From NCBI GenBank assembly GCA_018816335.1, contig JAHIVP010000023.1, forward strand, positions 1 to 58,423: a stretch of 58,423 nucleotides of DNA, in the 5' to 3' direction. Positions 444 through 48,412 of this stretch are shown here, in pieces. Position 1 is the first letter of the stretch. Every line of letters begins with the position of its first letter. Made by a program: the position numbers and the translations under genes. Under the pieces are notes generated by a model. The model was not told the DNA's origin and searched no databases. It saw only the letters and a list, made by a program, of their open reading frames with translations. The DNA is from Nanobdellota archaeon. Its GTDB lineage: Archaea; Nanobdellota; Nanobdellia; Pacearchaeales; GW2011-AR1.

Positions 444-530
444 CCACCCCAGACAAAATCAGCTCGTTGCTCGCTGATTTTGTTTTTAGGAGATTATTAA
501 TTGAAAGAAATTTTTGATTTTAGTTGGTTT
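444..530 (-). repeat. Oriented hairpin repeat family A, GA/GA subtype
   Basis: CCACCCC, 11-bp stem ACAAAATCAGC/GCTGATTTTGT around TCGTTGCTC, then the TTAGGAGATTATTAATTG tail. Confidence 0.8.
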
Positions 531-595
531 TTATAATTATTAATTCTTAGAATATCAGTTTTCGTCAGCTAATTCCTAACCACGCTCGCTTTGAT

Positions 596-3500
596 TTAAA
601 GTTCTCCATTCCCATTAATAATTTCACTTTCTTGTACCCTCGCTAAATCAGAAACTTTATCACCTTCTTGCAACTTAACAATTCTAACTCCTTGAGTTGC
701 CCTGCCCATTATTCTTAATTGTCTAACTTGTGTTCTAATAACTATTCCTTTTGATGTTGAAACAATTATGTCATCTTTTTCTGCAACTGAAACTGTTGTA
801 ACTACTGGGCCTGTTTTTGATGAGACTTTGAGATTGATTACTCCTTTTCCAGCACGTCCTGTTAATCTGTAAGAATCTTTTTCAGAACGTTTTCCATAAC
901 CTTTTTCTGTGATTGTAAGAACTGTGTTTTTTGATTCAGGGTTTAATATTTCTAAAGATATAACTTCATCCCCTGCTCCTAATTTTATTCCTGTGACTCC
1001 GTAAGAAGCCCGACCCATTGGACGAACTGCTGGAGATTTGAAGTGTATTGCTTGTCCTTTTTTTGTTACTAATAATGTTTCATCATTATCTTTGATTATT
1101 TTTACATCTATTAGTTCGTCGGAATTGTCCATAGGTAGATTAATTGCTTTAACACCTGAAGCTCTTGGTTTTGATAATTGTGCTAGAGGAAGTTTTTTTA
1201 CTATTCCTTTTTTAGTTGCAAACATTAGGTGGTCTTCAAATTTTCTAATTGAGATTACTGATTGGACTTCTTCATCTTTTAGGTTTAGTAAGTTGATTAA
1301 AGCTTTTCCTTTACTGTATTTTTCTGCTGCAGGAATTTCGTGAGCTTTTAGCCAGTAAACTTTTCCTTTTGATGTGAATAAAAGTAAGTAGTCGTGAGTT
1401 GAGCAAGTTAGTAATTGTTTTACAAAATCTCCTGTTGATAAATCTGAACCTATTACTCCTTTGCCTCCTCTTTTTTGTTCTCTGTAGTTTTTCACGTCGA
1501 TTCTTTTGCAGTATCCTTTATCTGTTATTGTAATTACAACATCTTTTTTTTGAACTAAATCTTGTTCTTTTATTTCTGAAAGTTTTCCAATTATTTTTGT
1601 TCTTCTTTCATCTCCGTATTTTCTTTTTATTTCTGAGATATCTTTTTTAATTAAACTTAGAACTTCTTGTATACTTCCTAAGATTTTTTGTAGTTCTTTT
1701 ATTCTTGCTTCTAGGTCTGATTTTTCTTTTTTTAGTTTGTCTGCTTCTAATCCTGTTAAATTTGATAGTTTCATATCTAAGATTGCTTGAGCTTGGTTTC
1801 TTGTTAAAGAGAATTTCTTTACTAAATTTTCTAGAGCAAGAGTTGGGTTTTTGCTAGCTTTGATTAGCTTTACAATTTCATCAATGTGTTGAAGTGCTTT
1901 TAGTAAGCCAAGAACAATTTCTAGACGAGCCTCTGCTTTTTTTAGTTCAAACTTTGATCTTTTTGTGATTACTATTCTTCTGTGTTTGATATATTCTTCA
2001 AGAATCATTTTTAGATTTAGAACTCTTGGTTTTCCTGCAACTAGAGCAATCATGTTTGCATTAAAATTGTCTTGTAATCTTGTGTTTTTGTAGATTCTGT
2101 TTAATGTGAATTTTTCTCCTGCTCCTTTTCTTAATTCTATAACTATTCTTATTTTTCCTTTTGCTGATTCATCTCTTATATCTGAAACATCTGGAAGTTT
2201 TTTATCTTGAGCAAGTTTTGCAATTTGTATAATTAAATCTGATTTGTTTAACATGTATGGAATTTCTGTGATTATTATTTTTGTTCTTCCTTTTGATTCT
2301 TCTGTTGTTGTTCTTCCCCTCATTACAATTCTTCCTTTTCCTGTTTTGTACATATCAATAATTCCTTCTGATGTTATTGAAGCTCCTGTTGGAAAGTCTG
2401 GACCTGTTACTACATTTGCTAGTTTTTCAATTGTTATGTCTGGCTTGTCAATTAGTTTTGTAATTGCATCACAAACTTCTGTTAGATTGTGAGGAGGGAT
2501 GTTTGTTGCCATTCCTACTGCAATTCCTGATGCTCCGTTGATTAGTAAGTTTGGAAGTTTTCCTGGAAGTACTTCTGGTTCTTTTAGAGAGTTGTCGAAG
2601 TTAGGTAACATTTTTACTGTTTCTTTATCTAAATCTTGAAGTAGTTCAGATGAGATAGATGCTAGTTTTGCTTCTGTATTATGACTAATAAATCCCCCAG
2701 AGATAAAAGAATGACAATCACTATCAACTTTTATGGAGTAGACCTTTTGTATTCCAGCTTTTTCAATTTTAGATACTTTATCAAATAAATATTGGTAAGT
2801 TAAGAAATATTCAAATATTGAGGAATAATCTTCTCCTGTTTTTTGTTTTAAAATTTGACAAACTTTTTGATAATTAGAACCCATAGAAGAATATCTATCA
2901 AAGTTATTAGTTGAAATAAATTTAGAATTGTCAATTTCTCTGATAAAATCGGATATAAAAGGAACATAATCTGTTAAAGAGCTATCTTTTTTATAATTTA
3001 AAATTACTAATTCTAATTTTTTGTTTTTCTTTTCAAAAAGAAACCCTATATCTTTATAGAATCTAAATACATTTCTTTTTCCTCTGAGATATAATTTATG
3101 GATTAATTTGTATTTATCATATCTTTTTGTAGCATCAATTCCAAATCTTAATAACAATATTTGTAAAGTGTCAATGAGCTTCTCACTTTTTGAACAGCAA
3201 CTTAATTCAATCATTTTTCTAGAAAAACTAATACTTCCATCTCCTTCAAAATAAGCTCTTAAAAATTCTTTAACAATATTTTTCGGGGACTCTAATATTA
3301 ATTGAGAGATTTCTTTTCCAGCAGAATTTATAGTTAATAATCCTATGTTTCTAAGAAATTCAATTGTATATCTACAATGACATTCTAATCTAAAATAAGA
3401 AAGTTTACCATAAGAAGAAGGTTCTTTTTTGAATTTATGTAGTTTACTATCTGGGAAAGTATTGTTCCATTTATTTTTAAATTCTTGTATCCATTTAATA

Positions 3501-4441
3501 TCAGAATTACAAAATTCAATTTTATTTTTCCCTATATATGCTTCTGAAACTAAACTTCCTAGAATAAATGCTAAATCTTCATCTAATTTTTTTGGAAGAA
3601 TTCTTTTTTTACTTCTATTATCTTTTAAATTTGGGTAAAATCTTTTAAGATCAATGTTGTTTTTTGGAAAGAAATTATCTGTTAATCTATCTAAAACAAC
3701 AATATCTCCTTCTTTAATTTTTTCTAATAACTTCCAGCAAAATACTGGTTTTCCATAAGAATTTTTTGTTAATATTAATAATGGATGATTATAACTTCCT
3801 GTAATGGAGTAGCCCTTGTTTGTAGTTAATTTTAATGTTTCATGTTTTCCAGAATCAAACCATTTAGAAGCATTATTTAATTTTTTGTCTTTACTGAGAA
3901 TTTTTAGGTTGATGTTTTCTTTATTTGAAATTTTATCAATTCTTTTTAAACCTTTTTCTGTTACAATTAAAGAATCTCCTGCTACACAATATCTCATTGC
4001 AGCTTGGGGGTCTCCGTCAACTGATCCGAAATTTCCTTGTCCGTGAATTAAAGGGTATCTTAAAGAGAAATTTTGAGCCATTCTAACTAATGCGTCGTAA
4101 ACAGCTGTGTCTCCGTGAGGGTGGTATTTACCTAAAACATCTCCAACAATTCTTGCACATTTTTTTGTTGGTTTTGAATTTTGTAATCCTATTAAATTCA
4201 TTGCGTGTAAGATTCTTCTATGAACTGGCTTAAGTCCGTCTTCAACAGAAGGAAGTGCTCTTGAAACTATAACTGACATAGCATAATCTATGTAAGCTTT
4301 TTCCATTTCTCCTCTAATTTCTGCTCTGATTACTCCTTCTCCATCTCCTGGTTCAATTAGATTTTTCTGGATTTCCTTTTTTTCTTCTTGTTCTATTTCT
4401 TTATCTAGATTTCCATTTTCTTCTGGTTGTTTTGGTGTCAT
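596..4441 (-). CDS. gyrA: DNA gyrase subunit A (intein-containing precursor)
   Basis: YHPHGD, GQGNFGS, AAMRY|TEA catalytic Tyr, GyrA-box QKRGGKG, C-terminal beta-pinwheel repeats. Confidence 0.98.
2678..3988 (-). mobile_element. Intein with LAGLIDADG homing endonuclease (437 aa) in GyrA
   Basis: Starts CVAGDS directly after the catalytic Tyr and ends SHN before T; block [13 protein letters not shown], block [11 protein letters not shown]; codon usage differs from the exteins. Confidence 0.95.
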
Positions 4442-4483
4442 TTTTCTTAGTATTATATTTTTCTTATTTATTATTTAATTTAT

Positions 4484-4798
4484 CTATACATCTATACTGT
4501 AAGGTGGACATTGGTATTTTGAACACTTCAATAATCTTGAGGTATATTGATTTTGTGTTTCATTCAAACAAAAGTCACCTACAACTTCAAATCCTTCTGG
4601 ACAAACAATATGGTTTCTTTCTATACATTCGCAGTTTTCGATTAACCAGTCTTTATCTGGTTTGCAAAACTCATCTTTGTCTATGTCATCTTGGTCTGAT
4701 ATTTGTTCAGATAGATTTCTGTTTTCATTGTAGAGATAGATAGCTGCTATTACTAGAACTACTATCAATCCAATGTAGATTAGTTTATTGTTTTTCAT
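4484..4798 (-). CDS. Small membrane-anchored Cys-rich protein
   Basis: MKNNKLIYIGLIVVLVIAA anchor and several Cys; start moved to ATG 4798 because the longer ORF overlaps a tRNA. Confidence 0.7.
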   Translation of the reverse strand: MKNNKLIYIGLIVVLVIAAIYLYNENRNLSEQISDQDDIDKDEFCKPDKDWLIENCECIERNHIVCPEGFEVVGDFCLNETQNQYTSRLLKCSKYQCPPYSIDV

Positions 4799-4820
4799 TT
4801 TAAATAGTAAATGTAAAGTG

Positions 4821-4918
4821 CGCCGGGTGCGGGATTTCCGTTGAAAAATTCGAACCCACAAAGTCGCTAGACTTCCAGTTTTTCAAACTGGTGTGTATAC
4901 CAATTCCACCAACCCGGC
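4821..4918 (-). tRNA. Long-variable-arm (Ser-like) tRNA with GAA anticodon and 14-nt intron at 59/60 (4835-4848)
   Basis: GCCGGGT/ACCCGGC acceptor, G discriminator, anticodon arm CCAGT-TTGAAAA-ACTGG, variable arm AAGTC-TAGC-GACTT, T-arm GTGGG..CCCGC with BHB TTCG/CGGA; TATA-like box about 25 bp upstream. Confidence 0.85.
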
Positions 4919-4964
4919 TTTGCACAACACCCAAAGATTTATATAATCTTAGAGCATTTTTGTA

Positions 4965-5011
4965 ACATAAGTTCGCTAGACTTTTGTGTATGCCAATTCC
5001 ATTGAACCTGC
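4965..5011 (-). pseudogene. Degenerate partial copy of the adjacent tRNA lacking the anticodon arm
   Basis: AAGTTCGCTAGACTT-T-TGTGTATGCCAATTCCA aligns to tRNA AAGTCGCTAGACTT-[17-nt anticodon arm]-TGTGTATACCAATTCCA. Confidence 0.65.
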
Positions 5012-5154
5012 ACTTTATCATTGTGGTTTTTTCTTTATTTATTAATATTTGTTTTGGTGTCATTTTGATAATTAGTGTATAAGTTTTGAAATTTTTGTAC
5101 CATACAAATAACCCCCCCACCCACCCTTATTTATGGTGCAAAAATTTAAATTAT

Positions 5155-5427
5155 TTATTCTAAACCTCCATAATCTAATTTTTCTCCAGGATCATACTCA
5201 TAGTGATCTAATGAACTAGATTTTTTTAACCATCCTTCTTCAACTAATAATCCTAAACAATATTCTAATAGGGTTACATCTTCTGAGGATAATTTTAGTT
5301 GTTCACTTAAAGTTATAAGGGTGCTATCAAATGCTTTTCCTTCTTTGAATAATTTTATTATTCTTTTCTTTAGTTCTTCTATTTCAATTTTTCGAGCATC
5401 ATAACTGTTTTTTATTTCTCCTTCCAT
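5155..5427 (-). CDS. Hypothetical protein, possible winged helix
   Basis: ORF packed in the gyrB run; LGLLVEEGWL resembles a wHTH wing. Confidence 0.6.
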   Translation of the reverse strand: MEGEIKNSYDARKIEIEELKKRIIKLFKEGKAFDSTLITLSEQLKLSSEDVTLLEYCLGLLVEEGWLKKSSSLDHYEYDPGEKLDYGGLE

Positions 5428-5428
5428 C

Positions 5429-5716: not shown

Positions 5717-5717
5717 T

Positions 5718-6068: not shown

Positions 6069-6069
6069 C

Positions 6070-7956
6070 TTAAATATCAACAAGAGCTTCGTGAGCATGT
6101 TCTTGTATAAAGTGTTTTCTTAATTCAACATTATCTCCCATTAGGATTGAGAAGATTTGGTCTGCTTCAACAGCGTCTTCAATTGTGATTCTTTTTAATG
6201 TTCTTTTTTTAGGGTTCATTGTTGTGTCCCAAAGTTGTTCTGAGTCCATTTCTCCTAATCCTTTGAATCTTATTACCTCTACGTTTCCTAGTTTTGCTAT
6301 TAGTTTTTGTAGAGCATTGTCAGAATAAACATAATGGTCTTTTTTCTTTTTGACTTTATATAAAGGAGAGACAGCGACGTAGATATTTCCGTTTTCAATT
6401 AGTTGAGGCATGAATCTGAAAAAGAATGTTAGTAATAGTGTTTTAATGTGTTGTCCGTCTACATCTGCATCTGTCATGATTATTACTTTATTGTATCTTA
6501 ATTTTTCTATATTAAATTGTTCTCCAATTCCTGTTCCTATTGCTGTGATTAGGTTTGCAATTTCTTCTGATGAGAATACTTTTGCTGGTGGTGCTTTTTC
6601 AACGTTAAGAATTTTTCCTTTTAGAGGTAGTATTGCTTGTATTTCTTTGTCTCTTGCTTCTTTAGCTGTTCCACCTGCTGATTGACCTTCTACAATATAT
6701 ACTTCTGTTCTTTCTTTTTTCTTTGATGAACAGTCTGCTAATTTTCCTGGTAATCCTGAACCGCCGAAAGCTGATTTTCTTCTAACTAAATCTTTTGCTC
6801 TTTTAGCTGCTGCTCGAGCTTTAGCTGCTTCTGAAGCTTTTATTGCTATCTTTCTTGCAATTGCTGGATTTTCTTCAAAGAATTCTGATAAACATGATGA
6901 AACAATTGAATCTAAAATTCCTTTAATTTCAGAGTTTCCTAATTTTGTTTTTGTTTGTCCTTCGAATTGTGGTTCTGGAACTTTTACTGAGACTATTGCT
7001 GTTAGCCCTTCTCTGACATCGTCGCCTGTTAGATTTTCTGATTTGATTATGTTTTGTTTTTTTGAGTAGTCGTTTATTACTCTTGTTAAAGCTGTTTTGA
7101 AACCAATAATATGAGTTCCACCTTCAACTGTGTTAATTGTATTTACAAATCCAAATATGTTTTCTTGGTATGAGTTTGTATATTGAATTGCAACTTCAGC
7201 TATAATACTGTCTTGTGTTTTTTTGAAGTAGACTGGTTTGTGTATTGCTTCTTTACTTTTATTTATCCATTTAACAAATTCTTGAAGTCCTCCTTCATAA
7301 TGGAATTCTTCTTTTTTCCCTGATTTTTCATCTAATAATATTATTTTTAATCCTGCGTTTAAGAAAGCTATTTCTCTGAATCTTGTTGCGAGGACATTGA
7401 AGTCGTAGTCTGTTGTTGAGAAAATTGTGTCGTCTGCAGTGAAGTTTATTGTTGTTCCTGTTTCTGATTTTTGACAGTTTCCTACTGTTTTTATTTTGTA
7501 TTGTGTTTTTCCAATTTTGTATTCTTGTTGGTGTATTTTTCCGTTTCTTTTTACTTGTGCTATCATGTGTTTACTTAGAGCTGATACAACAGAAATTCCT
7601 ACTCCGTGGAGTCCTCCTGAGATTTGATATGCTTTTTTGTCGAATTTTCCACCTGCGTGTAGTTTTGTGATTACAACTTCTAGGGCTGGAATTTTATATT
7701 TTGGGTGTGGATCTACTGGGATACCTCTTCCATTGTCTTCGACTGTTACTGATTTATTTTTATGAAGTGTTACTTTGATTAATGTGCATGTTCCTGCTAA
7801 TGCTTCGTCTACTGAGTTGTCTACTACTTCGTATACAAGGTGATGTAAGCCATCTTTTCCTGTTGAACCTATATACATTGCAGGACGGTGTCTAACTCCT
7901 TCAAGTCCTTCTAGAACTTTTATTTCATCTGCTGAATATTTTTTTGTTTCTGGCAT
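6070..7956 (-). CDS. gyrB: DNA gyrase subunit B
   Basis: RPAMYIG, EVVDNSVDE, GGLHGVG, VEGQSA, PLKGKILN, DADVDG, RFKGLGEM; start set at MPETKK. Confidence 0.98.
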   Translation of the reverse strand: MPETKKYSADEIKVLEGLEGVRHRPAMYIGSTGKDGLHHLVYEVVDNSVDEALAGTCTLIKVTLHKNKSVTVEDNGRGIPVDPHPKYKIPALEVVITKLHAGGKFDKKAYQISGGLHGVGISVVSALSKHMIAQVKRNGKIHQQEYKIGKTQYKIKTVGNCQKSETGTTINFTADDTIFSTTDYDFNVLATRFREIAFLNAGLKIILLDEKSGKKEEFHYEGGLQEFVKWINKSKEAIHKPVYFKKTQDSIIAEVAIQYTNSYQENIFGFVNTINTVEGGTHIIGFKTALTRVINDYSKKQNIIKSENLTGDDVREGLTAIVSVKVPEPQFEGQTKTKLGNSEIKGILDSIVSSCLSEFFEENPAIARKIAIKASEAAKARAAAKRAKDLVRRKSAFGGSGLPGKLADCSSKKKERTEVYIVEGQSAGGTAKEARDKEIQAILPLKGKILNVEKAPPAKVFSSEEIANLITAIGTGIGEQFNIEKLRYNKVIIMTDADVDGQHIKTLLLTFFFRFMPQLIENGNIYVAVSPLYKVKKKKDHYVYSDNALQKLIAKLGNVEVIRFKGLGEMDSEQLWDTTMNPKKRTLKRITIEDAVEADQIFSILMGDNVELRKHFIQEHAHEALVDI

Positions 7957-8231
7957 TTTTGATTTTTTTTGCTTTTGCTTCAATATATAATTCCCTCCCA
8001 CCCTCCTATTTATGGAAGCAAAATTAATCTTTGTATTTTCAAATCAAATTAGATAATTTCCACTAAATGGCTTTAGTTTTTGCTAAAGTCAAGGTAGAAG
8101 ATTACAACCTGTTGATATGTAAAAAACAACTTTGTTTATAAAGTTTTCCCCTTGTTTTTTTTGATTTGTCGACGGTAAATGAGAAAAATAGGGGATATGT
8201 ATAGTACAGTATATATGTTGTAGTATATAGA

Positions 8232-10251: not shown

Positions 10252-11457
10252 TTACTTCCAACTAACTACCACGTCATCAGTTCGTTCTCTTGGTTTGATG
10301 TCAATCTTGTTTATGTCTTTTTCAAAGCTGCTGGAGTGGAACATAATCTCTCCGGTATAAGCAATCATTGCAGCATTGTCGACTAATAAAGATTTTTCAG
10401 GACAAAAGAAGGCCGCCCCCCTTTCTTTACACATTATCTTACACATTTCTTGTAACCTTGTATTGCAACAAACTCCTCCGCCTAATGCTAGCTCGTTTTT
10501 TCCTGTGTGTGCTAGAGCACGTTCTGCTGCTTCTACCATCATTGCGAAAACTGTTTCTTGTAAAGAGTATGCTAAGTTTTCGACAGTATATTGTTGCTCC
10601 AAATCAGGCTTGCGCCATGATTTTTCGTTAGGAATTTTATTAATCTGAAAAACTTTTGAAGATGTTGATGAGTTAACTTTATTTAATTTAGATTTATCAG
10701 GTAATTTATCATAGAGTTGTTTGAGTTTTGTTAGTAATCCTGAAACTGAGACATCCATTCCTTTTATTGAATAAGGGAGTTCTATTAGGTCTGGAATTTG
10801 TTTTTTAGATGGGTCCCACCCACCCACCCTATCAGTTTGGTTATTAATAGAAGAAGATCTGTTATCAGATTGATTTTTATTAATAGGATTGTTTTTGTTG
10901 TTGGTTATAAATTTCTCAGCTAGTTCAGCAATCTTAGGGCCTCCTGGGAATCCTAAGCCTATGTAACGAGCAAATGTGTCAATCATGTTTCCTACACCCA
11001 TGTCTAGTGTTTCTCCGAAGATTCTGTATTTTTCTGCAGCATAAGAAATTATTTGTGTATTTGCTCCACTTACATAGAGAAGAACTGGGTCTTTTGCTCC
11101 AACAATTTTTGTAATTTCTAAATGAGCTATGCAGTGATTGACAGGAATTATTGGGATTGATAATTTTTCTGCTAATTGTTTTGCGAATTTCATTCCTTCT
11201 AATAATGAAGGAGCTAAACCAGGTGCGTTTGATAGAGCTATAGCTTTTATTTCAGATTCTTTTATATTTGCTTTTTCTAAAGCTTGTTTGTAGATTTTAT
11301 CTTTAACTTTTTCGTGATGTTCTGCTACTTCTGTTGGTATCATTCCACCTTGTCCTGATTTTGTTGTGAAGCTGTCACTGATGTTGCTTAGTATTTCTCC
11401 TTCTTTGACAACAGCCACACCAAAGGTGTGTGCTGTTGATTCAATTCCTAGTATCAT
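10252..11457 (-). CDS. kae1: tRNA t6A threonylcarbamoyltransferase Kae1 with two ~36-aa repeat-derived insertions
   Basis: LGIESTAH, HCIAH, LYVSGANTQ, GETLD, GFPGGP, DNAAMIA; extra segments after ELAEKF and after LKQLY. Confidence 0.95.
   Translation of the reverse strand: MILGIESTAHTFGVAVVKEGEILSNISDSFTTKSGQGGMIPTEVAEHHEKVKDKIYKQALEKANIKESEIKAIALSNAPGLAPSLLEGMKFAKQLAEKLSIPIIPVNHCIAHLEITKIVGAKDPVLLYVSGANTQIISYAAEKYRIFGETLDMGVGNMIDTFARYIGLGFPGGPKIAELAEKFITNNKNNPINKNQSDNRSSSINNQTDRVGGWDPSKKQIPDLIELPYSIKGMDVSVSGLLTKLKQLYDKLPDKSKLNKVNSSTSSKVFQINKIPNEKSWRKPDLEQQYTVENLAYSLQETVFAMMVEAAERALAHTGKNELALGGGVCCNTRLQEMCKIMCKERGAAFFCPEKSLLVDNAAMIAYTGEIMFHSSSFEKDINKIDIKPRERTDDVVVSWK
10595..10705 (-). repeat. 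Family A repeat (bulged-T subtype) translated in frame within kae1
   Basis: AAATCAGGCTTGCGCCATGATTTTTCGTTAGGAATTTTATTAAT is nearly identical to the intergenic copy at 47176. Confidence 0.85.
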
Positions 11458-14888: not shown

Positions 14889-15006
14889 GAGCCTGTAGCT
14901 CAGCCTGGTTAGAGCACCAGTCTTATAAGACACTGATTCATAAGAATCGGAAACCAAAACTTTCTAGGAAAGCTGGGGGTCCGCAGTTCAAATCTGCGCA
15001 GGCTCA
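14889..15006 (+). tRNA. tRNA-Ile(UAU) with 43-nt intron at 37/38 (14928-14970)
   Basis: GAGCCTG/CAGGCTC; CCAGT-CT-TAT-A|intron|A-GCTGG; BHB CTTA/TAGG with 3-nt bulges. Confidence 0.92.
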
Positions 15007-15063: not shown

Positions 15064-15174
15064 GCCCCGTTAGTCTAGAGGCCAAGGATTCTGCCCTTTC
15101 AAGTGAACCTTTTTAAAAGGTTCCCAAAAAGACGAAGAAAGGCAGTGACCCGGGTTCGAATCCCGGACGGGGCA
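15064..15174 (+). tRNA. tRNA-Glu(UUC) with 38-nt intron at 37/38 (15102-15139)
   Basis: GCCCCGT/ACGGGGC; CTGCC-CT-TTC-A|intron|A-GGCAG; BHB CTTT/GAAG. Confidence 0.93.
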
Positions 15175-15327: not shown

Positions 15328-15360
15328 AATCTTTGTAATTTTCGAAACTCTTGAAACTTT

Positions 15361-15527
15361 GTTAAACTTTAAATTCATAAAGTTTAAATTGAAAGACACC
15401 AAGGTTTCTTTCTATCTTCCTTAAATTTTGTTAAACTTTAAATTCATAAAGTTTAAATTGAAAGACACCAAGGTTTCTTTCTATCTTCCTTAAATTTTGT
15501 TAAACTTTAAATTCATAAAGTTTAAAT
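15361..15527 (+). CRISPR. Orphan CRISPR-like mini-array, or a 69-bp tandem repeat
   Basis: 35-bp palindromic GTTAAACTTTAAATTCATAAAGTTTAAATTGAAAG twice plus a truncated third copy, separated by two identical 34-bp spacers; no cas genes in the window. Confidence 0.4.
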
Positions 15528-15549
15528 AAGCTCTAAATTCTACAAAAAT

Positions 15550-17225: not shown

Positions 17226-17312
17226 TCCACCACCCCAACTCGTTTGTTTCCATGGTCAACAAACTCGTTTTAGGATTTTGTTAATAAATAAGAATTTTTA
17301 TGATAGGTTTGA
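17226..17312 (-). repeat. Family A repeat, GA/GA subtype
   Basis: CCACCACCCC, GTTTGTT-TCCATGGTC-AACAAAC, TTAGGATTTTGTTAAT...GATAGG. Confidence 0.75.
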
Positions 17313-17358
17313 TTTGTTTAGAATAGAATATAAATATTCTTTAAATTAATTTATAAAT

Positions 17359-17979: not shown

Positions 17980-18237
17980 TTTATTATTAATTCAGAAAGG
18001 TTTTTAAATTTAAGTTTGTGAGAGTTTTTTAAGAATTTTATTAATGTAAAGAGAATTTTAATGATAGGTGAGCAGTTTAGGTAGAAAGATTTATATATGA
18101 GATTTTTGATATAAAGTTATGACAGCGAAAACTTTAGGGAGTTATCCCCATTGTTGAAATAGAAGATAATTTTTTTAGCTGTTGCTTTCTTGGAAATGAT
18201 AAGGTTTTTAATGTTCTCTTAACTAAAGAGATATATA

Positions 18238-20010: not shown

Positions 20011-21163
20011 AATGAAAACAGAAACTGTTAAAGGATTTAGAGATATAGAAAATGCTTCGAAAAGGTTTGAGATAAGGAAGATTATTGAGGAAACTTTCAA
20101 GCTTTATGGTTTTGAGGGTGTTGAGACTCCTGTTGTAGAATATGAAGAGTTTGTTAAAGGAGAGAATTCTGGAGATGATGCTGTGTCTGATATTTTTAAA
20201 TTAGAAGATAAGGGAAAGAGAAAGTTGGCTTTGAGATATGAATTTACTTTTCAGTTGAAGAGACTTGCTAAGAATAAGAAGTTGCCTTGGAAAAGATATC
20301 AGATTGGTGAGGTTTTTAGAGATGAGCCTGTTAAGGCAAATCGATGGAGGCAGTTTACTCAGTGTGATATTGATACAATTGGATCTAGTGTTAGAGATGA
20401 AGCTGAGATTTTGAAGATTGTTTCTGAGTTAATGGATAAGTTAGGAATTAAAGTTGAAATTAATGTTAATAATAGAAAGTTGTTAAATGAGATTATAGAT
20501 GAATTAAAAATTAAAAAGAAAGAACAAGTAATGAGAGAGATAGATAAGCTTGATAAATTAGATGAAAAAGAAGTTAAGGCTAATTTGAAAAAGTATGAAG
20601 CTGAGAAAATTATTGATATATTAAAGAAACCTAAATCTTATTTTAAGAAATATGAATCTTATAATGAAATTGAGGAGTTGGAGAAGTATTGTAAGTTTTA
20701 TAATATTAAAATTAATTTTGTGGCTTTTTTAGTTAGGGGTTTGAGTTATTATAATGGAAGTGTTTTTGAGATAAAGGTTCCAAAGGTTGATGGGAGTGTG
20801 GCGGGAGGAGGAAGTTATTTGGTTAATGGAGTTCAGTCAACTGGAATTGCTTTTGGTTTAGATAGAATTGAGCAACTTGCTAATGTAGAAGTTGATAATA
20901 AAAAAGTTTTAATTATTTCAATTGGAAAAGATAAAGAAACTGTTGAATTAGCTGATAAATTAAGAGGAGAGGGAGTTGCTTGTGTTGTTAGTTTTGATAA
21001 AGTTGGGAAGGCTTTAGAGTATGCTAATTCTTATTCTATTCCTTATGTTGTTTTTGTTGGGGAAGAAGAAGTTAAGAAAAAGAAGTTTAAGTTGAAGGAT
21101 ATGGGAAGTGGAGAGGAGAGTTTTGTAAGTGAAAGAGATATTGGGAAGAAGCTTCGAATTTGA
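20000..21163 (+). CDS. hisS: Histidine--tRNA ligase
   Basis: VKGFRD, LRYEFT, FRDEP..RWRQFTQCD, LVRGLSYYNG, GGG, anticodon-binding domain. Confidence 0.93.
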   Translation: MESKMKTETVKGFRDIENASKRFEIRKIIEETFKLYGFEGVETPVVEYEEFVKGENSGDDAVSDIFKLEDKGKRKLALRYEFTFQLKRLAKNKKLPWKRYQIGEVFRDEPVKANRWRQFTQCDIDTIGSSVRDEAEILKIVSELMDKLGIKVEINVNNRKLLNEIIDELKIKKKEQVMREIDKLDKLDEKEVKANLKKYEAEKIIDILKKPKSYFKKYESYNEIEELEKYCKFYNIKINFVAFLVRGLSYYNGSVFEIKVPKVDGSVAGGGSYLVNGVQSTGIAFGLDRIEQLANVEVDNKKVLIISIGKDKETVELADKLRGEGVACVVSFDKVGKALEYANSYSIPYVVFVGEEEVKKKKFKLKDMGSGEESFVSERDIGKKLRI

Positions 21164-21228
21164 CTTTGTCAAAATTCTTCGCTAAGAAATTATTAATTGA
21201 GAAAAATTTAAAGATAGGTTGTGAGTAT
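21156..21228 (-). repeat. Family A repeat, bulged-T subtype, overlapping the hisS stop
   Basis: GAATTT-GAC-TTT-GTC-A-AAATTC, then TTCGCTAAGAAATTATTAATTG...GATAGGTTGTGAGT. Confidence 0.8.
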
Positions 21229-21348
21229 ATGTAAATATTAAATGATAATGGTTGAAAATTATTGGGTTTATTTATTCAACCAAACATAAATCTCATCAAA
21301 GTGTTTTTGACTATTTTTTATTGTTGAATATCATCTTTATTTGTTTTA

Positions 21349-26895: not shown

Positions 26896-27099
26896 TTTAT
26901 GATAATGGCTCAAATCCTTCTCGTGTTTGCAGTTCGTCGGGGCATATTATTATAGTTTCATAGAACTACAAACGCTCGCCTCTGCTCAGTTTTTCGCTTT
27001 TAGAGAAATTGTTAATCTAAAAAATTCTTGAAGTGTTGAGTTTATAAATAATTAATGTTGGATTATTAGTAATTTTAGATATGAAAAATCTGCTGAAAT

Positions 27100-34123: not shown

Positions 34124-34188
34124 TTTACTACTCCTGTAGATTAAATTAGGATAGAATTTGAGGTTATAAGGTTTTTGGATATTGTTTC

Positions 34189-34263
34189 GGAGCTGACTGT
34201 GTCAAGTTCCTTTGCTAAGAAATTTATTAATAGAAGGGAATCTTAAAGATAGGTTGTGAGTTT
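34189..34263 (-). repeat. Family A repeat, bulged-T subtype
   Basis: GGAGCT-GAC-TGT-GTC-A-AGTTCC, then TTGCTAAGAAATTTATTAAT...GATAGGTTGTGAGT. Confidence 0.8.
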
Positions 34264-34394
34264 AATTGTATTAATTTATAGATTTAGATGGTTATCTTTA
34301 TTATTTTTCCCAAATTGAATCAAAATAATCTTTATTTGGTACCACTTAATAGTAACATTTATAAATACTTTTAATTTAAATAAATCATATAAAA

Positions 34395-41028: not shown

Positions 41029-41067
41029 TGAGAAAATATGGGAATGTTTGGGGGAAGGGAGAATGAG

Positions 41068-41290
41068 AGCAATCAGCTCGGGGCTCGCTGATTGCTTTTT
41101 TGGAGATTTATTAATTGGTAAATTTTAATGATAAGTGATGGTTGAAATATATTAATATAGAATTTATTAATAAGAAAATTTTATGATAATTTTTATGGAA
41201 AATATAATGGCTACAAACTGGACTTTGTCACAGTTTTTCGCTTAAAGAGTTTATTATCTGGAAAAATTTTAAAGATAGAAGATTAGTTGG
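41068..41290 (-). repeat. Two family A repeats (41068 GA/GA subtype; 41215 bulged-T subtype) plus a tail-only copy
   Basis: AGCAATCAGC-TCGGGGCTC-GCTGATTGCT; AAACTG-GAC-TTT-GTC-A-CAGTTT; each followed by a TTATTA...GATA tail. Confidence 0.8.
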
Positions 41291-41354
41291 GATAGATGAT
41301 TAAAGAATTAATTATTTGAAATAGGTGGTTATAGAATTATTTAGAAATAATAAA

Positions 41355-42537: not shown

Positions 42538-42591
42538 ATTTTAGATTAGAATTAGTAGGTTTTAAGTTTTGTGAAATATGGATGGGATGCT

Positions 42592-42935
42592 AGAGATTGC
42601 CTCCATGGTCGGCAATCTCTTTTTGAGGAATTTATTAATTGGAAAAATTTTAAAGATAGGTTGTGAGTTTATATAAAAAAGAGATGGGTTGAATATAGAA
42701 ATGTAGTTTCCCCTCCACCCCTTTGACTCAATAACCTCGTAGCTCGGTTATCTTGTTTTAGGAATTTATTAACCCTAAAAATCTTCAGGATTTTTGGGCC
42801 ACAAAATCCAAGACTACACTTCTAAAAAATTCTAAGGAATTTTTGGAACCTTCAACTCTGAAGAGATTGAAGTCTTTGTGCAGAATTAGTTGAGGATTTT
42901 GTTGGTGTGAAGAAATTTTAATGATAGGTGATTAG
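42592..42935 (-). repeat. Two family A repeats (42592, 42730); the second is interrupted by a hairpin and a family B element
   Basis: AGAGATTGCC-TCCATGGTC-GGCAATCTCT; ATAACC-TCGTAGCTC-GGTTAT; tail split after TTATTAA and resumed at about 42906. Confidence 0.75.
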
Positions 42936-42959
42936 TAGGGAGGTATAAATATAGTTGTA

Positions 42960-43520: not shown

Positions 43521-43688
43521 TTTTGTTTATGATTCTTCCCCTCCTTGACAATTTGATTGAAGTTATATTAAAATTTGTTCAATCAAATTGTTTTTATTAT
43601 CTCCTATATTTTGAAAGATGATGGTTAGATTAGGGGTTAAGGTTATTTGTTTATATTTGATTTTCATTTTTGTTTATATGTTTTTACA

Positions 43689-44042
43689 TTAACATCCTGT
43701 GAGTTGTTTTAATTGAGCTATTGATTTTATTCCTGGGTAGAGTTGGTTGTTTATTTCCCATGTTGGTGTTTTTCTAATTTTTTTGTTTATACAATCTTGG
43801 TTTGCTGTTGTGCAGTCAATAATTGTTAGTTTGTCTAAGTGGGCTAATATTATATTTTTTTGCATTGAACATTCTTCACATTCTCTTGAAGTATAGAGTT
43901 TTGCTTTTGAATATATACAACTGAGATAATTTTCTTGTGAGTTATCTTCTGAATCTTTTTCATCTAGTGAGAGGTTTATTAAAAAAATCAAAATGACTAA
44001 TATAATTGCTGTTATTATTAAAATTAAATTTGATTTCTTCAT
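43689..44042 (-). CDS. Membrane-anchored thioredoxin-fold protein
   Basis: LYTSRECEECSMQK..IDC..TPTW..GIKS..LTGC. Confidence 0.75.
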   Translation of the reverse strand: MKKSNLILIITAIILVILIFLINLSLDEKDSEDNSQENYLSCIYSKAKLYTSRECEECSMQKNIILAHLDKLTIIDCTTANQDCINKKIRKTPTWEINNQLYPGIKSIAQLKQLTGC

Positions 44043-44073
44043 GAGATTAAAGACTAAGTAAGTTTAAAAATAT

Positions 44074-44880
44074 TTATAATTCTCCTCGTTGGAGTTTGTC
44101 TAGTTCTGCTTTTTCATTAGCTATTCTTTGTTCGATTTGTTTAATTCTGTCTTCGTTTTTTAATTTGTTAATTTGAGCTTGAGCTTCTTTAATTCTTTTT
44201 TCTGCTTCAATTATTTCTTGTCTTGTTGATATTTCTGATTGTGATAGTTGAGGACTTTTGCCTAGTTTTCTTATGTTTATTTGATTTGGTGATTGAGAAG
44301 TTCTAACTTTTTTTATTACAAAGAATATTACAACAAGACCTACTACTAATCCTATAATTGTGAAGTATACAGTGCTGTTTGAAAAAAAGTCACCAACTTT
44401 TGATACTGCATTTCCTGTAATTCCTGCTGAAGTATCTTCTGTTGTTTCTTCAACTGTTTCTTCTGGAGATTCTATTGGTTCTTCTGGTTCTTCAACTGTT
44501 TCTTCTGGTTCAACTGGAGCTAGAGCAGGGTCTCCTCCTTCTGAAATTGTTGCTTCAAATCCTGGGACCATTTCAATATAATATTGTTTTCCTGTTACAT
44601 ATTCCTCAAATCTTTCTTTTAGGACTTCTCTTTTACCTTGTGTAACTTTTACTATTATATCAATAGCTTCTTGTTCTCCGGGATATACTACTGTTACTTT
44701 TCCTGTTGGTCCTGCGTTTTCATGGAAACTTTTAAAGAATTCATATTTTTCTGTAGCTCCTAATATGTTAATTGTGATATCATAATTAACAACTGTTTTA
44801 ACTGTTATTTCTGTATTTGCTGCAGATGCTACATTAACTAATAATAAAAATAATAAAGTTGTTAGCAATATTTTCCTCAT
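44074..44880 (-). CDS. Secreted single-pass membrane protein with coiled-coil tail
   Basis: Signal peptide, acidic linker, ITGNAV motif, TM. Confidence 0.75.
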   Translation of the reverse strand: MRKILLTTLLFLLLVNVASAANTEITVKTVVNYDITINILGATEKYEFFKSFHENAGPTGKVTVVYPGEQEAIDIIVKVTQGKREVLKERFEEYVTGKQYYIEMVPGFEATISEGGDPALAPVEPEETVEEPEEPIESPEETVEETTEDTSAGITGNAVSKVGDFFSNSTVYFTIIGLVVGLVVIFFVIKKVRTSQSPNQINIRKLGKSPQLSQSEISTRQEIIEAEKRIKEAQAQINKLKNEDRIKQIEQRIANEKAELDKLQRGEL

Positions 44881-44980
44881 TTTATGTTTTTCTTAAGATT
44901 TATTTATTTATAAATATTCCTATAGTTGTTTTTTGAGAAGAGGTAGGAAGATTTTATATAAAATCTTTGAGAAATGAAGA

Positions 44981-45286
44981 TTACTTCATTTCGATTTTAA
45001 TTGAAACAGAACGAGGGATTTGCATTTTCATTACAGTGTGAAGGACTCTGTCATTAGAAGGAAGGTCAATAATTCTTTTGTGGATTCTCATTTCAAAGTT
45101 GTCGAATGTTGCTGTTCCGCTACCACAAGGAGATTTTCTAGTTGTGATTTTCATTTTTTTAGTAGGAAGAGGAATAGGTCCTGAAATATTTATACCAGCA
45201 TTAGTTGCTATATCTTTAATAGAATTGGAAATAAAATTAAGAGCAGTTATATCTGCGCTTTTCAACTTTATTCTTACTTTTGACAT
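44981..45286 (-). CDS. rps10: 30S ribosomal protein S10
   Basis: GPIPLPT..TRKSPCGSG..MRIHKR. Confidence 0.97.
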   Translation of the reverse strand: MSKVRIKLKSADITALNFISNSIKDIATNAGINISGPIPLPTKKMKITTRKSPCGSGTATFDNFEMRIHKRIIDLPSNDRVLHTVMKMQIPRSVSIKIEMK

Positions 45287-45435
45287 TTTGATTTTCATAA
45301 CAGTTTGTTATAATGTTACGTCTAATATTTAGTAAAAAATTTGTTACAGAAAATCAATGATTTTCTGTTCCTGAAATTTACTTAAGATTGTGAGTAAATT
45401 TCAGTTTTTAAAGTTTGCTGTTTGAAATTATTGAG

Positions 45436-45527
45436 CCACCACCCCAAGAAATCAGCTCGGGGCTTACTGATTTCTTTTTAGGAATTTATTAGTTGAAGAG
45501 AATTTATGATAAGTTGGAGGTTGAGTA
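45436..45527 (-). repeat. Family A repeat
   Basis: CCACCACCCC, AAGAAATCAG..CTGATTTCTT, TTAGGAATTTATTAGTTG...GATAAG. Confidence 0.78.
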
Positions 45528-45588
45528 TAATATTAATTTAGATTGAGAATAAGATTAAGATTATTGTGATTAAAAATAGATTAGTCAG

Positions 45589-45741
45589 GAGCGTGTCTAA
45601 AAATAAATTAAATTCAACATATTTCTACGGCGCAGTTTCATATCTCACCACCATCCCCCAACCCCCCCTCCCGAATGAAGATAAAATTAATGAAACTGCG
45701 TCAATAAAGTAAAAAGTTATTTTGAATTATTAGACACGCTC
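45589..45741. mobile_element. 153-bp MITE with 12-bp TIRs and 9-bp target-site duplication
   Basis: GAGCGTGTCTAA...TTAGACACGCTC flanked by ATTAGTCAG at 45580-45588 and 45742-45750. Confidence 0.85.
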
Positions 45742-45784
45742 ATTAGTCAGATAATTATATAAATAGTTTTTTATTATATTCTTC

Positions 45785-47113
45785 ATGGAGGTGAATATCT
45801 TATTTGACTTTTTGTTAGCATTAGGTATAGGAGCGATTATTGGGTTGGAGAGGGAGATTCAGCAGCAACATGAGAAAGAGAAGGATTTTGCTGGGATTAG
45901 GACATTTATTTTGATTTCTATTTTGGGTTTTTTGTCTGCGTTTATTTCAATTAGGTTATTTGATTCTATTATTACTTTTATTATTGCATTTGCTGTTTTT
46001 GCTCTTTTTATTTCAACTGCTTATGTTATATTGGCTTTGAAAAAGGGAAAGTTTGGGACTACAACTGAGATTGCTGCTTTTATTGCATTTTTATTATCTG
46101 CTGCTGTTGCTTTTGATATTACTAATAATATGAAGTTGGTTGCTGTTGGAGTTGCTGTGATTGTTGCTTCACTTTTGGTTTTGAAAAGAAAGTTACATAA
46201 GTTTGCTGGTGGGATTAAGATTGTTGAGGTTTATGCTGCGATTAAAATGGCTGTGATTAGTATTATTATTTTACCTCTTCTTCCAAATTATAATTATACT
46301 TTGCTTGAGATTCCTATTGTTGATAAGATTGTTGGTTTGTTTCCGAAGATTATTCCTATTGTTGAGCAGCTTGATGTTTTTAATCCATTTAAGATTTGGT
46401 TGATGGTTGTGTTTATTACTGGTTTGAGTTTTATTGGATATATTTTGATTAAAAGTATTGGAATGAATAAGGGAATTAAGTTGACAAGTATTTTAGGTGC
46501 TTTGGTTTCTTCAACAGCTGTGACTGTTTCTTTGTCTGATAAGAGTAAGGGGAAGAAAGTTTATACTCCGTTTGTAATTGGAATTGTGTTGGCTTCTTCG
46601 ATTATGTTTGTTAGAGTTTTAATTGAGATTATTGTTGTTAATCCTTCTTTGTTTCATTTAGCTTTGATTCCGATTGGAGGGATGGCTATAACTGGTTTGT
46701 TAGTTAGTTTTTTATTTAGCAAGTTTATGAAACAGGAAAAAGATGAGAGAATTGATTTGAAGAGTCCGTTTGCAATTGGGCCTGGGATTAAGTTTGGTTT
46801 GTTTTTTGCTTTTATTTTAGTTATCTCTAAATTGTTGTTTATTTTATTTGGGAACTCTGGAATTTTTATTGCTGCTCTGGTTTCTGGGTTGGCTGATGTT
46901 GATGCTATTACTTTGACATTAGCTAGTTTGGCTGCTGGAGGAACAGTGTCTGCTGTTGTTGCTGTTTTAGGGATTACAATTGCTGTTGCTTCTAATACTG
47001 TTGTTAAGGCTGGGATTGCAATGGTAATGGCTGATAAAAGAGTTGGGAAGTGGGTTGCTATTATATTTGCATTAATATTGGCGGTGGGGTTGGGGGTTTT
47101 GTTGTTTTTGTAA
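45785..47113 (+). CDS. MgtC/SapB + DUF4010 membrane protein
   Basis: GAIIGLERE..AGIRTF, GTTTE, LVSSTA, GLADVDA. Confidence 0.92.
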   Translation: MEVNILFDFLLALGIGAIIGLEREIQQQHEKEKDFAGIRTFILISILGFLSAFISIRLFDSIITFIIAFAVFALFISTAYVILALKKGKFGTTTEIAAFIAFLLSAAVAFDITNNMKLVAVGVAVIVASLLVLKRKLHKFAGGIKIVEVYAAIKMAVISIIILPLLPNYNYTLLEIPIVDKIVGLFPKIIPIVEQLDVFNPFKIWLMVVFITGLSFIGYILIKSIGMNKGIKLTSILGALVSSTAVTVSLSDKSKGKKVYTPFVIGIVLASSIMFVRVLIEIIVVNPSLFHLALIPIGGMAITGLLVSFLFSKFMKQEKDERIDLKSPFAIGPGIKFGLFFAFILVISKLLFILFGNSGIFIAALVSGLADVDAITLTLASLAAGGTVSAVVAVLGITIAVASNTVVKAGIAMVMADKRVGKWVAIIFALILAVGLGVLLFL

Positions 47114-47174
47114 GTTTCTTATTTGTCGTGGTGGTGGGGTTGGGGGTTTTGTTGTTTTTGTAAGAGAAGAACTT

Positions 47175-47250
47175 AAAATCAGGCTTCGCCATGATTTTTC
47201 GTTTAAGAAATTTATTAATTAAAGAAAATTTCATGATAGGGTTGATTGAT
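47175..47250 (-). repeat. Family A repeat, bulged-T subtype (closest match to the kae1 insert)
   Basis: AAAATCA-GGC-TTC-GCC-A-TGATTTT, TTCGTTTAAGAAATTTATTAATT...GATAGG. Confidence 0.82.
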
Positions 47251-47297
47251 TTTGTTCAATTAGATAATAATAAATATTTAGTTGATTAAGATAATTT

Positions 47298-47987
47298 ATG
47301 AATACTTATGTTCGTGGGTTGTGTTTTATTATAATTGTAATATTAATAGTTGTTGTTCCTGGTTTGTTTTATTCTGATGAGATTGAGGGAGATATTGTTG
47401 TTAGGGTTTTAGATGGAGATACTGTTGAAGTTAGTGGAGAAGATCATATTAGATTATTAGGAATTAATGCTCCTGAGAGAGGGATGAAGTTGTATCAGGA
47501 AGCTAAGGATTATTTATTGTTTTTGGAGGGGAAGGAAGTTGAGATGGAGTTTTTTGAAGAAGAGTATGATAAGTATGGAAGGAAGTTGAGGTATGTTTTT
47601 TATAATAATAGAAATATTAATCGTGAGTTGGTTTTGAATGGGCTTGCTAATGTTTTGATTTATCAAGAAGATGATTATAGTGATGAGTTGATTGAAGCTG
47701 AAGATTATGCAAGGGATAATGAGTTAGGAATATGGAAGAAGAGTTTTAGTAAGTGTTCAGATTGTGTTAAGATAGTTTTTGCTAATAAAGATATTGAGTT
47801 TAGAAATAATTGTGGGTTTGGTTGTGATTTATCTGGTTGGAGGGTTAAAGATAGACAGAGACATTATTTTGAATTTGGAGATAGGGTTTTAGAAAAGGGA
47901 GATAATTATGTTTTAGATTGGGATTATGATTCTGAGAATATTTTTGTTTGGGATGGGGTGGGGTTGGTTTATTTTTCAGATAAATAA
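47298..47987 (+). CDS. Thermonuclease (SNase) family protein with lamin-tail-like C-terminus
   Basis: VLDGDT, IRLLGINAPE, DKYGR, GIW. Confidence 0.92.
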   Translation: MNTYVRGLCFIIIVILIVVVPGLFYSDEIEGDIVVRVLDGDTVEVSGEDHIRLLGINAPERGMKLYQEAKDYLLFLEGKEVEMEFFEEEYDKYGRKLRYVFYNNRNINRELVLNGLANVLIYQEDDYSDELIEAEDYARDNELGIWKKSFSKCSDCVKIVFANKDIEFRNNCGFGCDLSGWRVKDRQRHYFEFGDRVLEKGDNYVLDWDYDSENIFVWDGVGLVYFSDK

Positions 47988-48284
47988 CTCAATATCAAAC
48001 TTGACAGCTTCTTGTTTGAATTGTTCGCAGAGAGTTGGTTGAGATATGCACCAGTTTTCGCAGATAGCTTTGTTGTCTGGAACAGAACAAAATATCATAC
48101 AGTCTGGGCCTTCACAATGTGGAGACATTGAGATTTGTTCAAAGAGTTCTGAGTTTAGTGAGTCAAGTTGTAGATAGTCTTGTGAGTTGTTGATTATTTT
48201 TTGAGATATTGTTAAGTCTATGAATAATAAGATTATGATTGCTAGGAATATTATTGTGATTGTTATTAAGGTTGTTTTTTTCAT
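47976..48284 (-). CDS. Small membrane-anchored Cys-rich protein
   Basis: N-terminal TM; CEGPDCMIFC..CENWC..C. Confidence 0.6.
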   Translation of the reverse strand: MKKTTLITITIIFLAIIILLFIDLTISQKIINNSQDYLQLDSLNSELFEQISMSPHCEGPDCMIFCSVPDNKAICENWCISQPTLCEQFKQEAVKFDIELFI

Positions 48285-48328
48285 GGGGTTATATAGTGTT
48301 TTAGTTTTATAAACTTATTTGGTTTTTC

Positions 48329-48412
48329 TCCACCTTATAAAATCACCTCGGGGCTTGGTGATTTTATTTGAAGAGATTTGTTAGTTGAAGAAAATTCAAG
48401 ATAGGTTGTAGT
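48329..48412 (-). repeat. Family A repeat
   Basis: ATAAAATCACC-TCGGGGCTT-GGTGATTTTAT...GATAGGTTGT. Confidence 0.75.

Follow-up and report, generated by a model that had tools for sequence, protein, structure and literature searches.

What kind of DNA element is repeated along a 58,423-nt contig of a Nanobdellota archaeon with every copy pointing the same way, and what sets that direction? The contig (JAHIVP010000023.1 of assembly GCA_018816335.1, designated C35 of the genome G000), which is called the window over its whole length, carries a family of imperfect hairpins, each followed by an AT-rich tail. An earlier note on this DNA had proposed a replication-polarised, single-stranded DNA (ssDNA) element system resembling repetitive extragenic palindromes (REPs), mobilised in trans, with Y1 or RAYT enzymes in view, or marking chromosome polarity. 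The reading that is preferred here, with a probability of roughly 45%, is that of old, non-autonomous structured DNA related in kind to REPs, transposable elements of the miniature inverted-repeat type (MITEs), or Rickettsia palindromic elements (RPEs), which would act as a folded single strand and be inserted or retained strand-specifically relative to replication. The host is a DPANN archaeon, Pace-/Woesearchaeota-like, with an assembly of 0.90 Mb in 45 contigs, ~30% GC, and an estimated completeness of 82%; the closest named records to the GyrB encoded in the window are bins labelled Pacearchaeota, Woesearchaeota, or Nanoarchaeota, and the sequencing runs containing DNA of this genome are groundwater metagenomes.

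The sequence view shows a tail directly after the hairpin at all 12 window positions where hairpin copies had been described, and the partial tail-like copies at about 10815, 18030, 26990, and 41160 are also present, giving 16 named places. The 16-mer AGGAATTTATTAATTG has 13 matches in the window with at most three mismatches, against 4.68 expected, a number that none of 100 shuffles reaches, and 12 of the 13 are on the plus strand. A tail profile starts out with 14 window matches and ends, after its final round, with 12, every one of them on the plus strand, and a covariance model of the element, R1, which was used on this genome and on relatives, gives 11 at E ≤ 0.1, again all on the plus strand; the single orientation claimed for every window copy is thereby borne out. 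Over the whole genome, the iterated tail profile settles at 36 matches at E ≤ 0.05 (40 at E ≤ 1), while R1 finds 46 matches at E ≤ 1, of which 39 are at E ≤ 0.1, so that there are about 40 copies. The R1 matches are short imperfect palindromes in many copies, mostly intergenic, as in REP-type repeats.

The element unit measures ~90–120 nt and consists of one imperfect hairpin, of module A or module B, followed by the tail, which contains a box resembling the archaeal B recognition element and TATA box (BRE/TATA), AGGAA-TTTATTAA, as well as GATAGGTTGTGAG, the latter in this genome only. On the plus, tail-forward strand, type B reads as an outer AGC, a TTC internal loop, a 6-bp stem, GAC-TTT-GTC, a bulged A, the returning stem, TTC, and GCT; type A often starts with CCACCACCCC and continues with AAC, TC, a 7-bp stem, TC, one base pair, a triloop, one base pair, TC, the returning stem, TT, and GTT. 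The two apex forms that the earlier note had described on the minus strand are these same modules, the GA/GA form being type A and the bulged-T form type B. When the type B architecture alone was searched for on both strands of the genome with stem sequence ignored, 23 matches were obtained, and 16 of them are element hairpins with a tail after them (the matches on C15 and C43 being a single copy counted twice at overlapping contig ends); therefore, hairpin and tail form one unit. Only one element hairpin in that search, on C42, lies in the reverse sense.

All window copies described below are on the plus strand. Type B hairpins stand at 10601, 21156, 34189, 41215, and 47176, and the corresponding elements are 10591–10713 inside the Kae1 gene (R1 10591–10686, E 2.2e-11), 21146–21239 over the stop of the HisRS gene (R1 E 2.9e-14; alignment A1), 34179–34274, which is 51 nt upstream of the opposite-strand aIF5B/IF-2 gene (R1 E 4.7e-13), 41205–41300 (R1 E 6.3e-13), and 47166–47259 between two co-directional plus-strand genes (R1 E 3.4e-12); a weak type B-like copy lies at 26960–27054 (R1 E 0.015). 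Type A hairpins stand at 453, 17242, 41068, 42592, 42730, 45446, and 48337. Their elements are 443–540, with CCACCCC, a hairpin at ~453–482, and a tail from 483 (tail profile 484–531, E 7.8e-4; row w453 of alignment A2); 17233–17327, with CCACCACCCC, hairpin, and tail (R1 E 0.068; A2 row w17242); 41066–41156, which lacks the C-rich flank (R1 E 0.056; A2); 42583–42681, which has the best tail match of the genome (tail profile E 4e-8; R1 E 3.2e-7); 42713–42800, with a truncated tail (A2 row w42730); 45445–45534 between divergent genes (R1 E 0.032; A2); and 48330–48426 (R1 E 0.07; A2). Tail-only copies occur at 18027–18085 (tail profile E 6e-4) and 42894–42931 (tail profile E 1.1e-3), and a degenerate C-rich tail-like copy at 10789–10911. 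Eight element copies are found between 40900 and 48430 among accessory-type genes (BacA, cyclophilin, MgtC/DUF4010, and an SNase homologue). Elsewhere in the genome, a tandem array of 47-nt tail-like units (TTTAATAAAAGTTA...AAGATAGGTTGAGG) occupies C34:29450–30110 beside one type A and one type B element. Elements are also frequent at contig ends (C14, C34, and C15/C43) and therefore break the assembly.

That the structure of the hairpin is maintained is evident from compensatory change, which is strong in both types. Among 17 type B copies, 92.2% of 204 cells are paired compared with 74.3% in shuffles, none of 500 shuffles being as high; 10 of 12 pairs have changed on both sides, and registers slid along the stem are only 30–44% paired. 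Among 11 type A copies, 94.9% of 99 cells are paired compared with 67.6% in shuffles, 8 of 9 pairs have changed on both sides, and slid registers are 17–45% paired. The covariance test proposed in the earlier note thus comes out in favour of a conserved structure, and its statement that stems differ completely yet always pair is correct as regards pairing and overstated as regards difference, since the average identity over hairpin columns is 62% and the stem shows partial conservation at its first positions. Hardly any variation is seen where bases do not pair: all 17 type B copies have T at columns 17 and 55, the bulged A is present in 16 of the 17, and all 11 type A copies have T31 and T38. 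The copies have a mean pairwise identity of 61% and a maximum of 84%; therefore, they are old, and there is no sign of recent bursts. Stems that stay paired together with mismatches and a bulge that stay unpaired argue for ongoing selection, either for mobilisation competence in master-copy lineages or for a role in the host.

The pairing itself looks more like DNA than RNA. In type B, G-T/T-G pairs number 9 against 4 A-C/C-A pairs; in type A, the counts are 0 and 3, and pooled over both types they are 9 and 7. Such symmetric wobble counts, unlike those of most structured RNAs, carry no RNA-strand signal, and DNA fits better than RNA. With DNA parameters, the purine-loop (reverse) strand folds better in 24 of 28 copies, by 0.3–0.4 kcal/mol, a difference too small to decide between strands. 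Rfam gives two tRNAs only in the window and no match to the element, and among seven element loci three matches at E 1.8–2, far under gathering scores.

The orientation of the element follows the strand composition of the chromosome. In this genome, genes co-oriented with the G-rich strand of their contig have a GC skew of +0.42 and the others of −0.01; at third codon positions, read on the own coding strand, the values are +0.81 on the G-rich strand and −0.39 on the other, which correspond to +0.8 and +0.4 on one physical strand. Intergenic GC skew is +0.15, T exceeds A on the G-rich strand, and the distribution of per-gene skew is bimodal here and unimodal in the relatives G059 and G042. The strand offset of a contig was defined as the mean of its plus-gene and minus-gene skews, which makes it independent of gene direction, and the asymmetry of this genome is one of the strongest gene-independent ones that could be computed. 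For R1 matches at E ≤ 0.1, after removal of two duplicates at overlapping contig ends (n = 37), element orientation is concordant with the strand offset in 34 cases and discordant in 3 (binomial p ~1e-7); outside the window, the counts are 23 and 3. Each of 17 contigs holds elements of a single orientation, and no skew flip occurs within any contig of the genome. The three discordant matches (on C17, C33, and C42) belong to a subfamily of inverted pairs in which R1 matches both strands. Contig C5 (55.9 kb) is the sole long contig without a strand offset, with skews of ~+0.25 in plus genes and ~−0.35 in minus genes, and holds one motif of the C-loop type described below; a separate replicon, foreign DNA, or an error of binning could account for it.

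Neighbouring genes do not account for this orientation. Among 43 sites, the flanking genes are same/opposite at 11, opposite/opposite at 10, opposite/same at 7, and same/same at 6, with 9 at contig ends; the upstream gene is on the same strand at 18 sites and on the opposite strand at 19, and the downstream gene on the same strand at 15 and on the opposite strand at 25. All four configurations occur; therefore, transcription does not set orientation, and terminator function, which the earlier note had already doubted as an explanation for all copies, does not fit the gene context. It could nevertheless be imagined that the unit is an RNA module, in which transcription coming from upstream stops at the hairpin and T-run and a small or antisense RNA is initiated by the BRE/TATA-like tail at about GATAGG, or in which the purine-loop hairpin of the minus strand is a protein-binding RNA motif. 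AGGAA-TTTATTAA does resemble the archaeal BRE/TATA box in its usual consensus, with GATAGG 20–25 nt downstream, T4–T5 follows type A hairpins, and the reverse strand is the slightly better folder in those 24 of 28 copies; yet the orientation ignores genes, with the next downstream gene convergent at 25 of 43 sites, the upstream regions of 730 ordinary genes carry TTTAAA/TTTATA and lack GATAGG, GATAGGTTG is not conserved in other genera, neither strand has an excess of G-U wobble, and Rfam has no match. An RNA module is thus distinctly unlikely, and a terminator or promoter role was rejected on the strength of the gene context and the upstream motifs of the 730 genes. One groundwater metatranscriptome, available as contigs in which ends and strand are not readable, yields 11 records, none spanning an element, and gives no evidence either way.

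The element is not the only polar hairpin in this genome. A second family, without sequence likeness to it, consists of a CCCnCCCnCCC loop on an AT-rich stem that varies, and its C-rich loop is on the G-rich strand in 48 of 48 intergenic copies; the loop motif alone is oriented 57 to 3. In the window, the motif occurs at 5112, 7993, and 45657, the last within a long inverted repeat with the C-rich loop on the plus strand (45589–45745; self-BLAST family 2, flanked by an inverted repeat of 11 nt). Three unrelated families, namely, the type A, type B, and C-loop hairpins, follow the same chromosome-strand rule. Among five relatives with few contigs, the C-loop motif has no match in four, and two overlapping matches were found in the fifth, G016.

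These observations invite the explanation that the hairpins are a polar DNA signal of the host, which bind a host protein on an exposed strand and are kept in one orientation by selection; candidate roles are lagging-strand priming similar to that of mitochondrial OriL, orientation of the fork or of segregation in the manner of FtsK orienting polar sequences (KOPS), or protection of long-lived ssDNA. Stems that are 92–95% paired despite 61% mean identity, unpaired bases and a TTT loop that are invariant, three unrelated polar hairpin families in one genome, and an extreme, bimodal strand asymmetry are all consistent with such a signal. A host signal would, however, hardly be expected to be as patchy as this element (12 of 60 genera), to cluster so unevenly that 11 of 37 counted copies lie in one 58-kb contig when several long contigs hold at most one, or to occur inside coding sequences and as tandem arrays, and the C-loop motif has no match in four of five relatives and two overlapping matches in the fifth. 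A host signal is accordingly regarded as unlikely.

The same polarity could also arise passively if insertion took place in both orientations and only copies matched to the G/T-rich strand stayed recognisable under extreme strand-specific mutation pressure. The forward strand of the element does have a GC skew of +0.33 and an AT skew of −0.06, like the host strand, and the copies are old; but the structure-only search on both strands, in which stem sequence plays no part, recovered 16 element hairpins among 23 matches with only the one on C42 reversed, the stems are symmetric in composition and should survive either way round, and in the C-loop family 48 of 48 copies have retained the C-rich loop on the strand that is poor in C, where decay would leave the opposite. 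Such a filter is very improbable as the source of the polarity.

Evidence that copies occupy sites that are empty in related genomes comes from the Kae1/TsaD gene (10252–11457, minus strand; Pfam PF00814, E 6.8e-71; PDB 2ivn, E 2.2e-91, in three stretches). Compared with the solved Pyrococcus protein (PDB 2ivn), this Kae1 has two extra segments, at aa 183–223 and aa 249–288, whose boundaries are precise to about a codon, being taken from protein alignment. The latter (38–40 aa) corresponds to the type B element at 10601 in antisense, with no stop; it lies in frame, in line with the report of a copy inside a coding sequence. The former is the C-rich tail-like copy at 10789–10911, an in-frame insertion of 41 aa that is present at full length in this genome only and in none of the relatives. 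The second site (aa 249–288) is filled in 7 of 25 genomes of the family (G000, G005, G010, G012, G020, G024, and G042) and empty in 18, so that the filled and empty orthologous sites which the earlier note had looked to as a test do exist. The insertions vary in length and sequence among the seven, and that of G010 is a complete inverted pair. All seven genomes with a filled site are positive for the element, and among the 18 with an empty site, G014 alone is positive at E ≤ 0.001. Because the site is empty in G016, a supported sister of G000, at least two events are needed; the Kae1 tree is itself unsettled, joining the seven insertion-bearing genomes costs 16.3 log-likelihood units, and a single origin of the seven is not rejected (p of the approximately unbiased test, p-AU, 0.25).

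In the wider group, R1 at E ≤ 0.01 recovers the element from 8 of the 24 further genera of this family, and no match was obtained in 16 genomes belonging to the order's other families; at E ≤ 0.001, it matches in 12 of 60 related genera, with 1 to 19 matches each. The core conserved across genera comprises the type B hairpin, TTCGCT, a purine-rich spacer, and TTATTAAT, and GATAGGTTG is specific to this genome and perhaps G014. In G010, G005, and G012, the units occur as inverted pairs with ~35-nt flanks resembling terminal inverted repeats, and this form of ~200–250 nt looks MITE- or REPIN-like (a REPIN being a REP doublet forming a hairpin); no terminal inverted repeats were seen around the solo units of G000. 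Those loci of relatives where the balanced third-codon GC skew (GC3) offset reaches 0.15 or more contain 8 copies, of which 7 are concordant; this is suggestive only, as these loci are 3 kb long. In G059 and G042, the strand offset is mostly |GC3 offset| < 0.1 and thus too weak to score polarity. A synteny look for an empty site at the MgtC-like gene did not find that gene in five relatives, and assembled DNA from three further groundwater runs is interrupted or jumps at the repeats, with no clean filled/empty joints.

As regards a protein that moves or reads the element, the proposed link to Y1 or RAYT enzymes is the part of the earlier note that finds no support. The Y1 genes of G005 and G019 have typical IS200-like hairpins of their own, which differ from the element, and no R1 match next to Y1 genes of relatives goes below E 1.5, so that no Y1/RAYT gene flanked by such hairpins was found. 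TnpB (PF07282) has no match in this genome and one weak sub-threshold match in G010. Mobilisation in trans by Y1/RAYT is therefore not supported, with no Y1 match in the genome and no association over 60 relatives, as detailed below. A ~180-aa gene is duplicated at 85% identity (C38:15195–15746 and C27:23520–24053), and its C38 copy (183 aa) lies between two elements; as a transposase candidate it was dropped for its likeness to NYN/LabA-type nucleases, judged by eye from motifs.

Two XerA-type tyrosine recombinases are encoded (C15:221–1081 and C23:32229–33050), which raises the thought that the hairpins are attC-like sites, folded ssDNA substrates of one of these two paralogues, and that the 40.9–48.4 kb region is a cluster of attC sites lacking integron integrases (CALIN). 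It speaks for this that structure is conserved more than sequence, that 16 of 17 type B copies have an extrahelical A, that 7 of 11 type A copies have AAC...GTT at their base, that sites of one orientation separate accessory genes (MgtC-like, SNase, BacA, and cyclophilin), and that integrons and CALINs have been reported in Nanoarchaeota (PMC9668308). In attC sites, the R'' and R' boxes, RYYYAAC and GTTRRRY, pair with each other. The seven-base R boxes here, however, are not complementary (CCCCAAC vs. GTTTTTA), type B has AAC/GTT in 0 of 17 copies, each site is followed by a conserved tail of ~50 nt, the genes that separate sites run in both directions, and copies lie inside Kae1. Moreover, against the integron integrase model (TIGR02249), the two proteins score 202 and 207 bits, each in two stretches, under a cut-off of 265. 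An attC-like nature is hence quite improbable.

When the strand-specific structured element is weighed as a whole, several points tell against it. The direction of replication was read from the skew and from the 65% of coding bases that lie on the G-rich strand. PF01797 (Y1_Tnp) has no match in the genome at its 82% completeness, and over 60 relatives Y1 presence is without association to the element: both occur in 4 (~3.8 expected by chance), the element only in 8, Y1 only in 15, and neither in 33, a result that the 61–95% completeness of the bins weakens and does not reverse. A transposase or other mobilising gene was not identified, and a target-site duplication or conserved target motif at the left boundary was not seen, by eye only. 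On contig C9 (30 kb) of G059, three copies point −, +, −, and therefore the family is not polar everywhere. Three polar families in one genome point to a genome-level cause and not to a property of a single element, and stems 92–95% paired at 61% identity suggest selection on each copy and thus a host function. The original proposal of a REP-like, replication-polarised ssDNA element accordingly survives in part: the repeat family, the covarying hairpin, the strand polarity, and the DNA-like wobble hold, and the Y1/RAYT link is not supported.

Under the preferred reading of old, non-autonomous structured DNA, the following course can be envisaged. The hairpin would fold when its own strand is single-stranded, the folding strand being the G/T-rich one, which is assumed to be the lagging-strand template; a putative structure-specific protein would read the invariant unpaired features, namely, the T-C/T-C internal loops, the bulged A, and the TTT loop; and insertion or retention would be strand-specific, so that orientation would be fixed by replication and not by transcription. 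Copies would find room between genes or, in frame, within protein loops that tolerate them, and they may have been mobile in the recent past. A bolder variant, which is a long shot, holds that the chromosome is replicated with one strand long single-stranded and that the polar hairpins (type A, type B, and C-loop) are dispersed host signals there and not mere selfish DNA. If true, long-single-strand replication would explain the extreme gene-independent G/T excess, and the hairpins would serve either as OriL-like second-strand start sites or as places where a structure-specific protein docks to give replication or segregation its direction.

The remainder of the window consists of ordinary housekeeping genes, including gyrA with an intein, gyrB, Kae1, HisRS, and aIF5B, among others. 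gyrA (596–4441, minus strand) contains the intein with a LAGLIDADG domain, and gyrB (6070–8001) adjoins it. Two tRNA genes with long introns, 14889–15006 (118 nt in total) and 15064–15174 (111 nt in total), both on the plus strand, were matched by Rfam and missed by ARAGORN. Direct repeats of ~2.5 units of ~63 nt containing GAAAGACACCAAGGTTTCTTTC lie at 15340–15530, with related copies on C3, C4, C9, and C15.

What is known of DPANN archaea comes almost solely from metagenome bins, and there has been little study of their repeats or of how they replicate; in a literature search of incomplete coverage, no description of these elements, nor of GC skew in Pace- or Woesearchaeota, turned up. Three polar hairpin families together with an extreme strand asymmetry offer a handle on replication and on the movers or readers of folded ssDNA in Archaea. 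The in-frame copies in Kae1 show that essential proteins, too, are reshaped by element DNA, in the manner of the RPEs of Rickettsia, and a protein partner, if found, would be either a new hairpin-specific mobilising enzyme other than Y1 or the reader of a new polar chromosome signal.

Among known systems, the REPs and REPINs served by RAYTs, whose genes are typically flanked by REPs, share with the element tens of short imperfect hairpins that lie mostly between genes and are presumed to act as folded single strands, as well as inverted doublets, which occur here in G010, G005, and G012. They differ in that no RAYT/Y1 was found in G000 and no association exists across relatives, and in that the element has a long conserved tail, near-absolute chromosome-strand polarity, and copies inside coding sequences. 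The foot of the REP palindrome is described as a conserved GTAG or CGTC head (PMC3733652), whereas the feet of the element are AGC...GCT in type B and AAC...GTT in type A, with no GTAG/CGTC head. In integron attC sites and CALINs, too, structure is conserved more than sequence, an extrahelical base is present, and a single orientation is kept along an array of accessory genes; the element differs from them by lacking R-box complementarity in the outer four bases, by its conserved tail and mixed gene orientation, and in that no IntI-type integrase was found. With MITEs of the DDE type, which have terminal inverted repeats, the element may be compared by the ~35-nt flanks resembling such repeats in the pairs of G010, G005, and G012; none were seen around the solo units of G000.

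IS200/IS605 elements carry imperfect subterminal hairpins, at both ends in direct orientation, that are recognised on one strand, and their orientation bias is tied to the lagging-strand template. Palindrome-associated transposable elements (PATEs) and similar IS200/IS605-derived sequences resemble the element in having single-strand imperfect hairpins, and their bias may have a counterpart in the 34 of 37 copies here that are concordant with the strand asymmetry. The element, however, has one hairpin per unit in G000 and inverted, not direct, arrangements in G010, G005, and G012; the true IS200-like genes of G005 have unrelated hairpins, and no TnpA/TnpB was found in G000. Mitochondrial OriL-type hairpins have a T-rich loop on the strand with a deamination-type G/T excess and are orientation-dependent, features shared with the T-rich-loop hairpins on the G/T-excess strand here; the element differs in that tens of copies are scattered over an archaeal chromosome, where a priming role is putative only. 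RPEs are palindromic repeats of ~100–150 nt that lie between genes and also in frame within essential protein genes, where they are read through. The in-frame insertion at two sites in Kae1, of which the type B site is empty in 18 of 25 relatives, parallels this behaviour; the archaeal host, the strict strand polarity, and the two interchangeable hairpin modules set the present family apart. The finding is real and unusual, and the element is placed, with the probability given at the outset, as a variant of the structured-repeat kind, REP/MITE/RPE-like.

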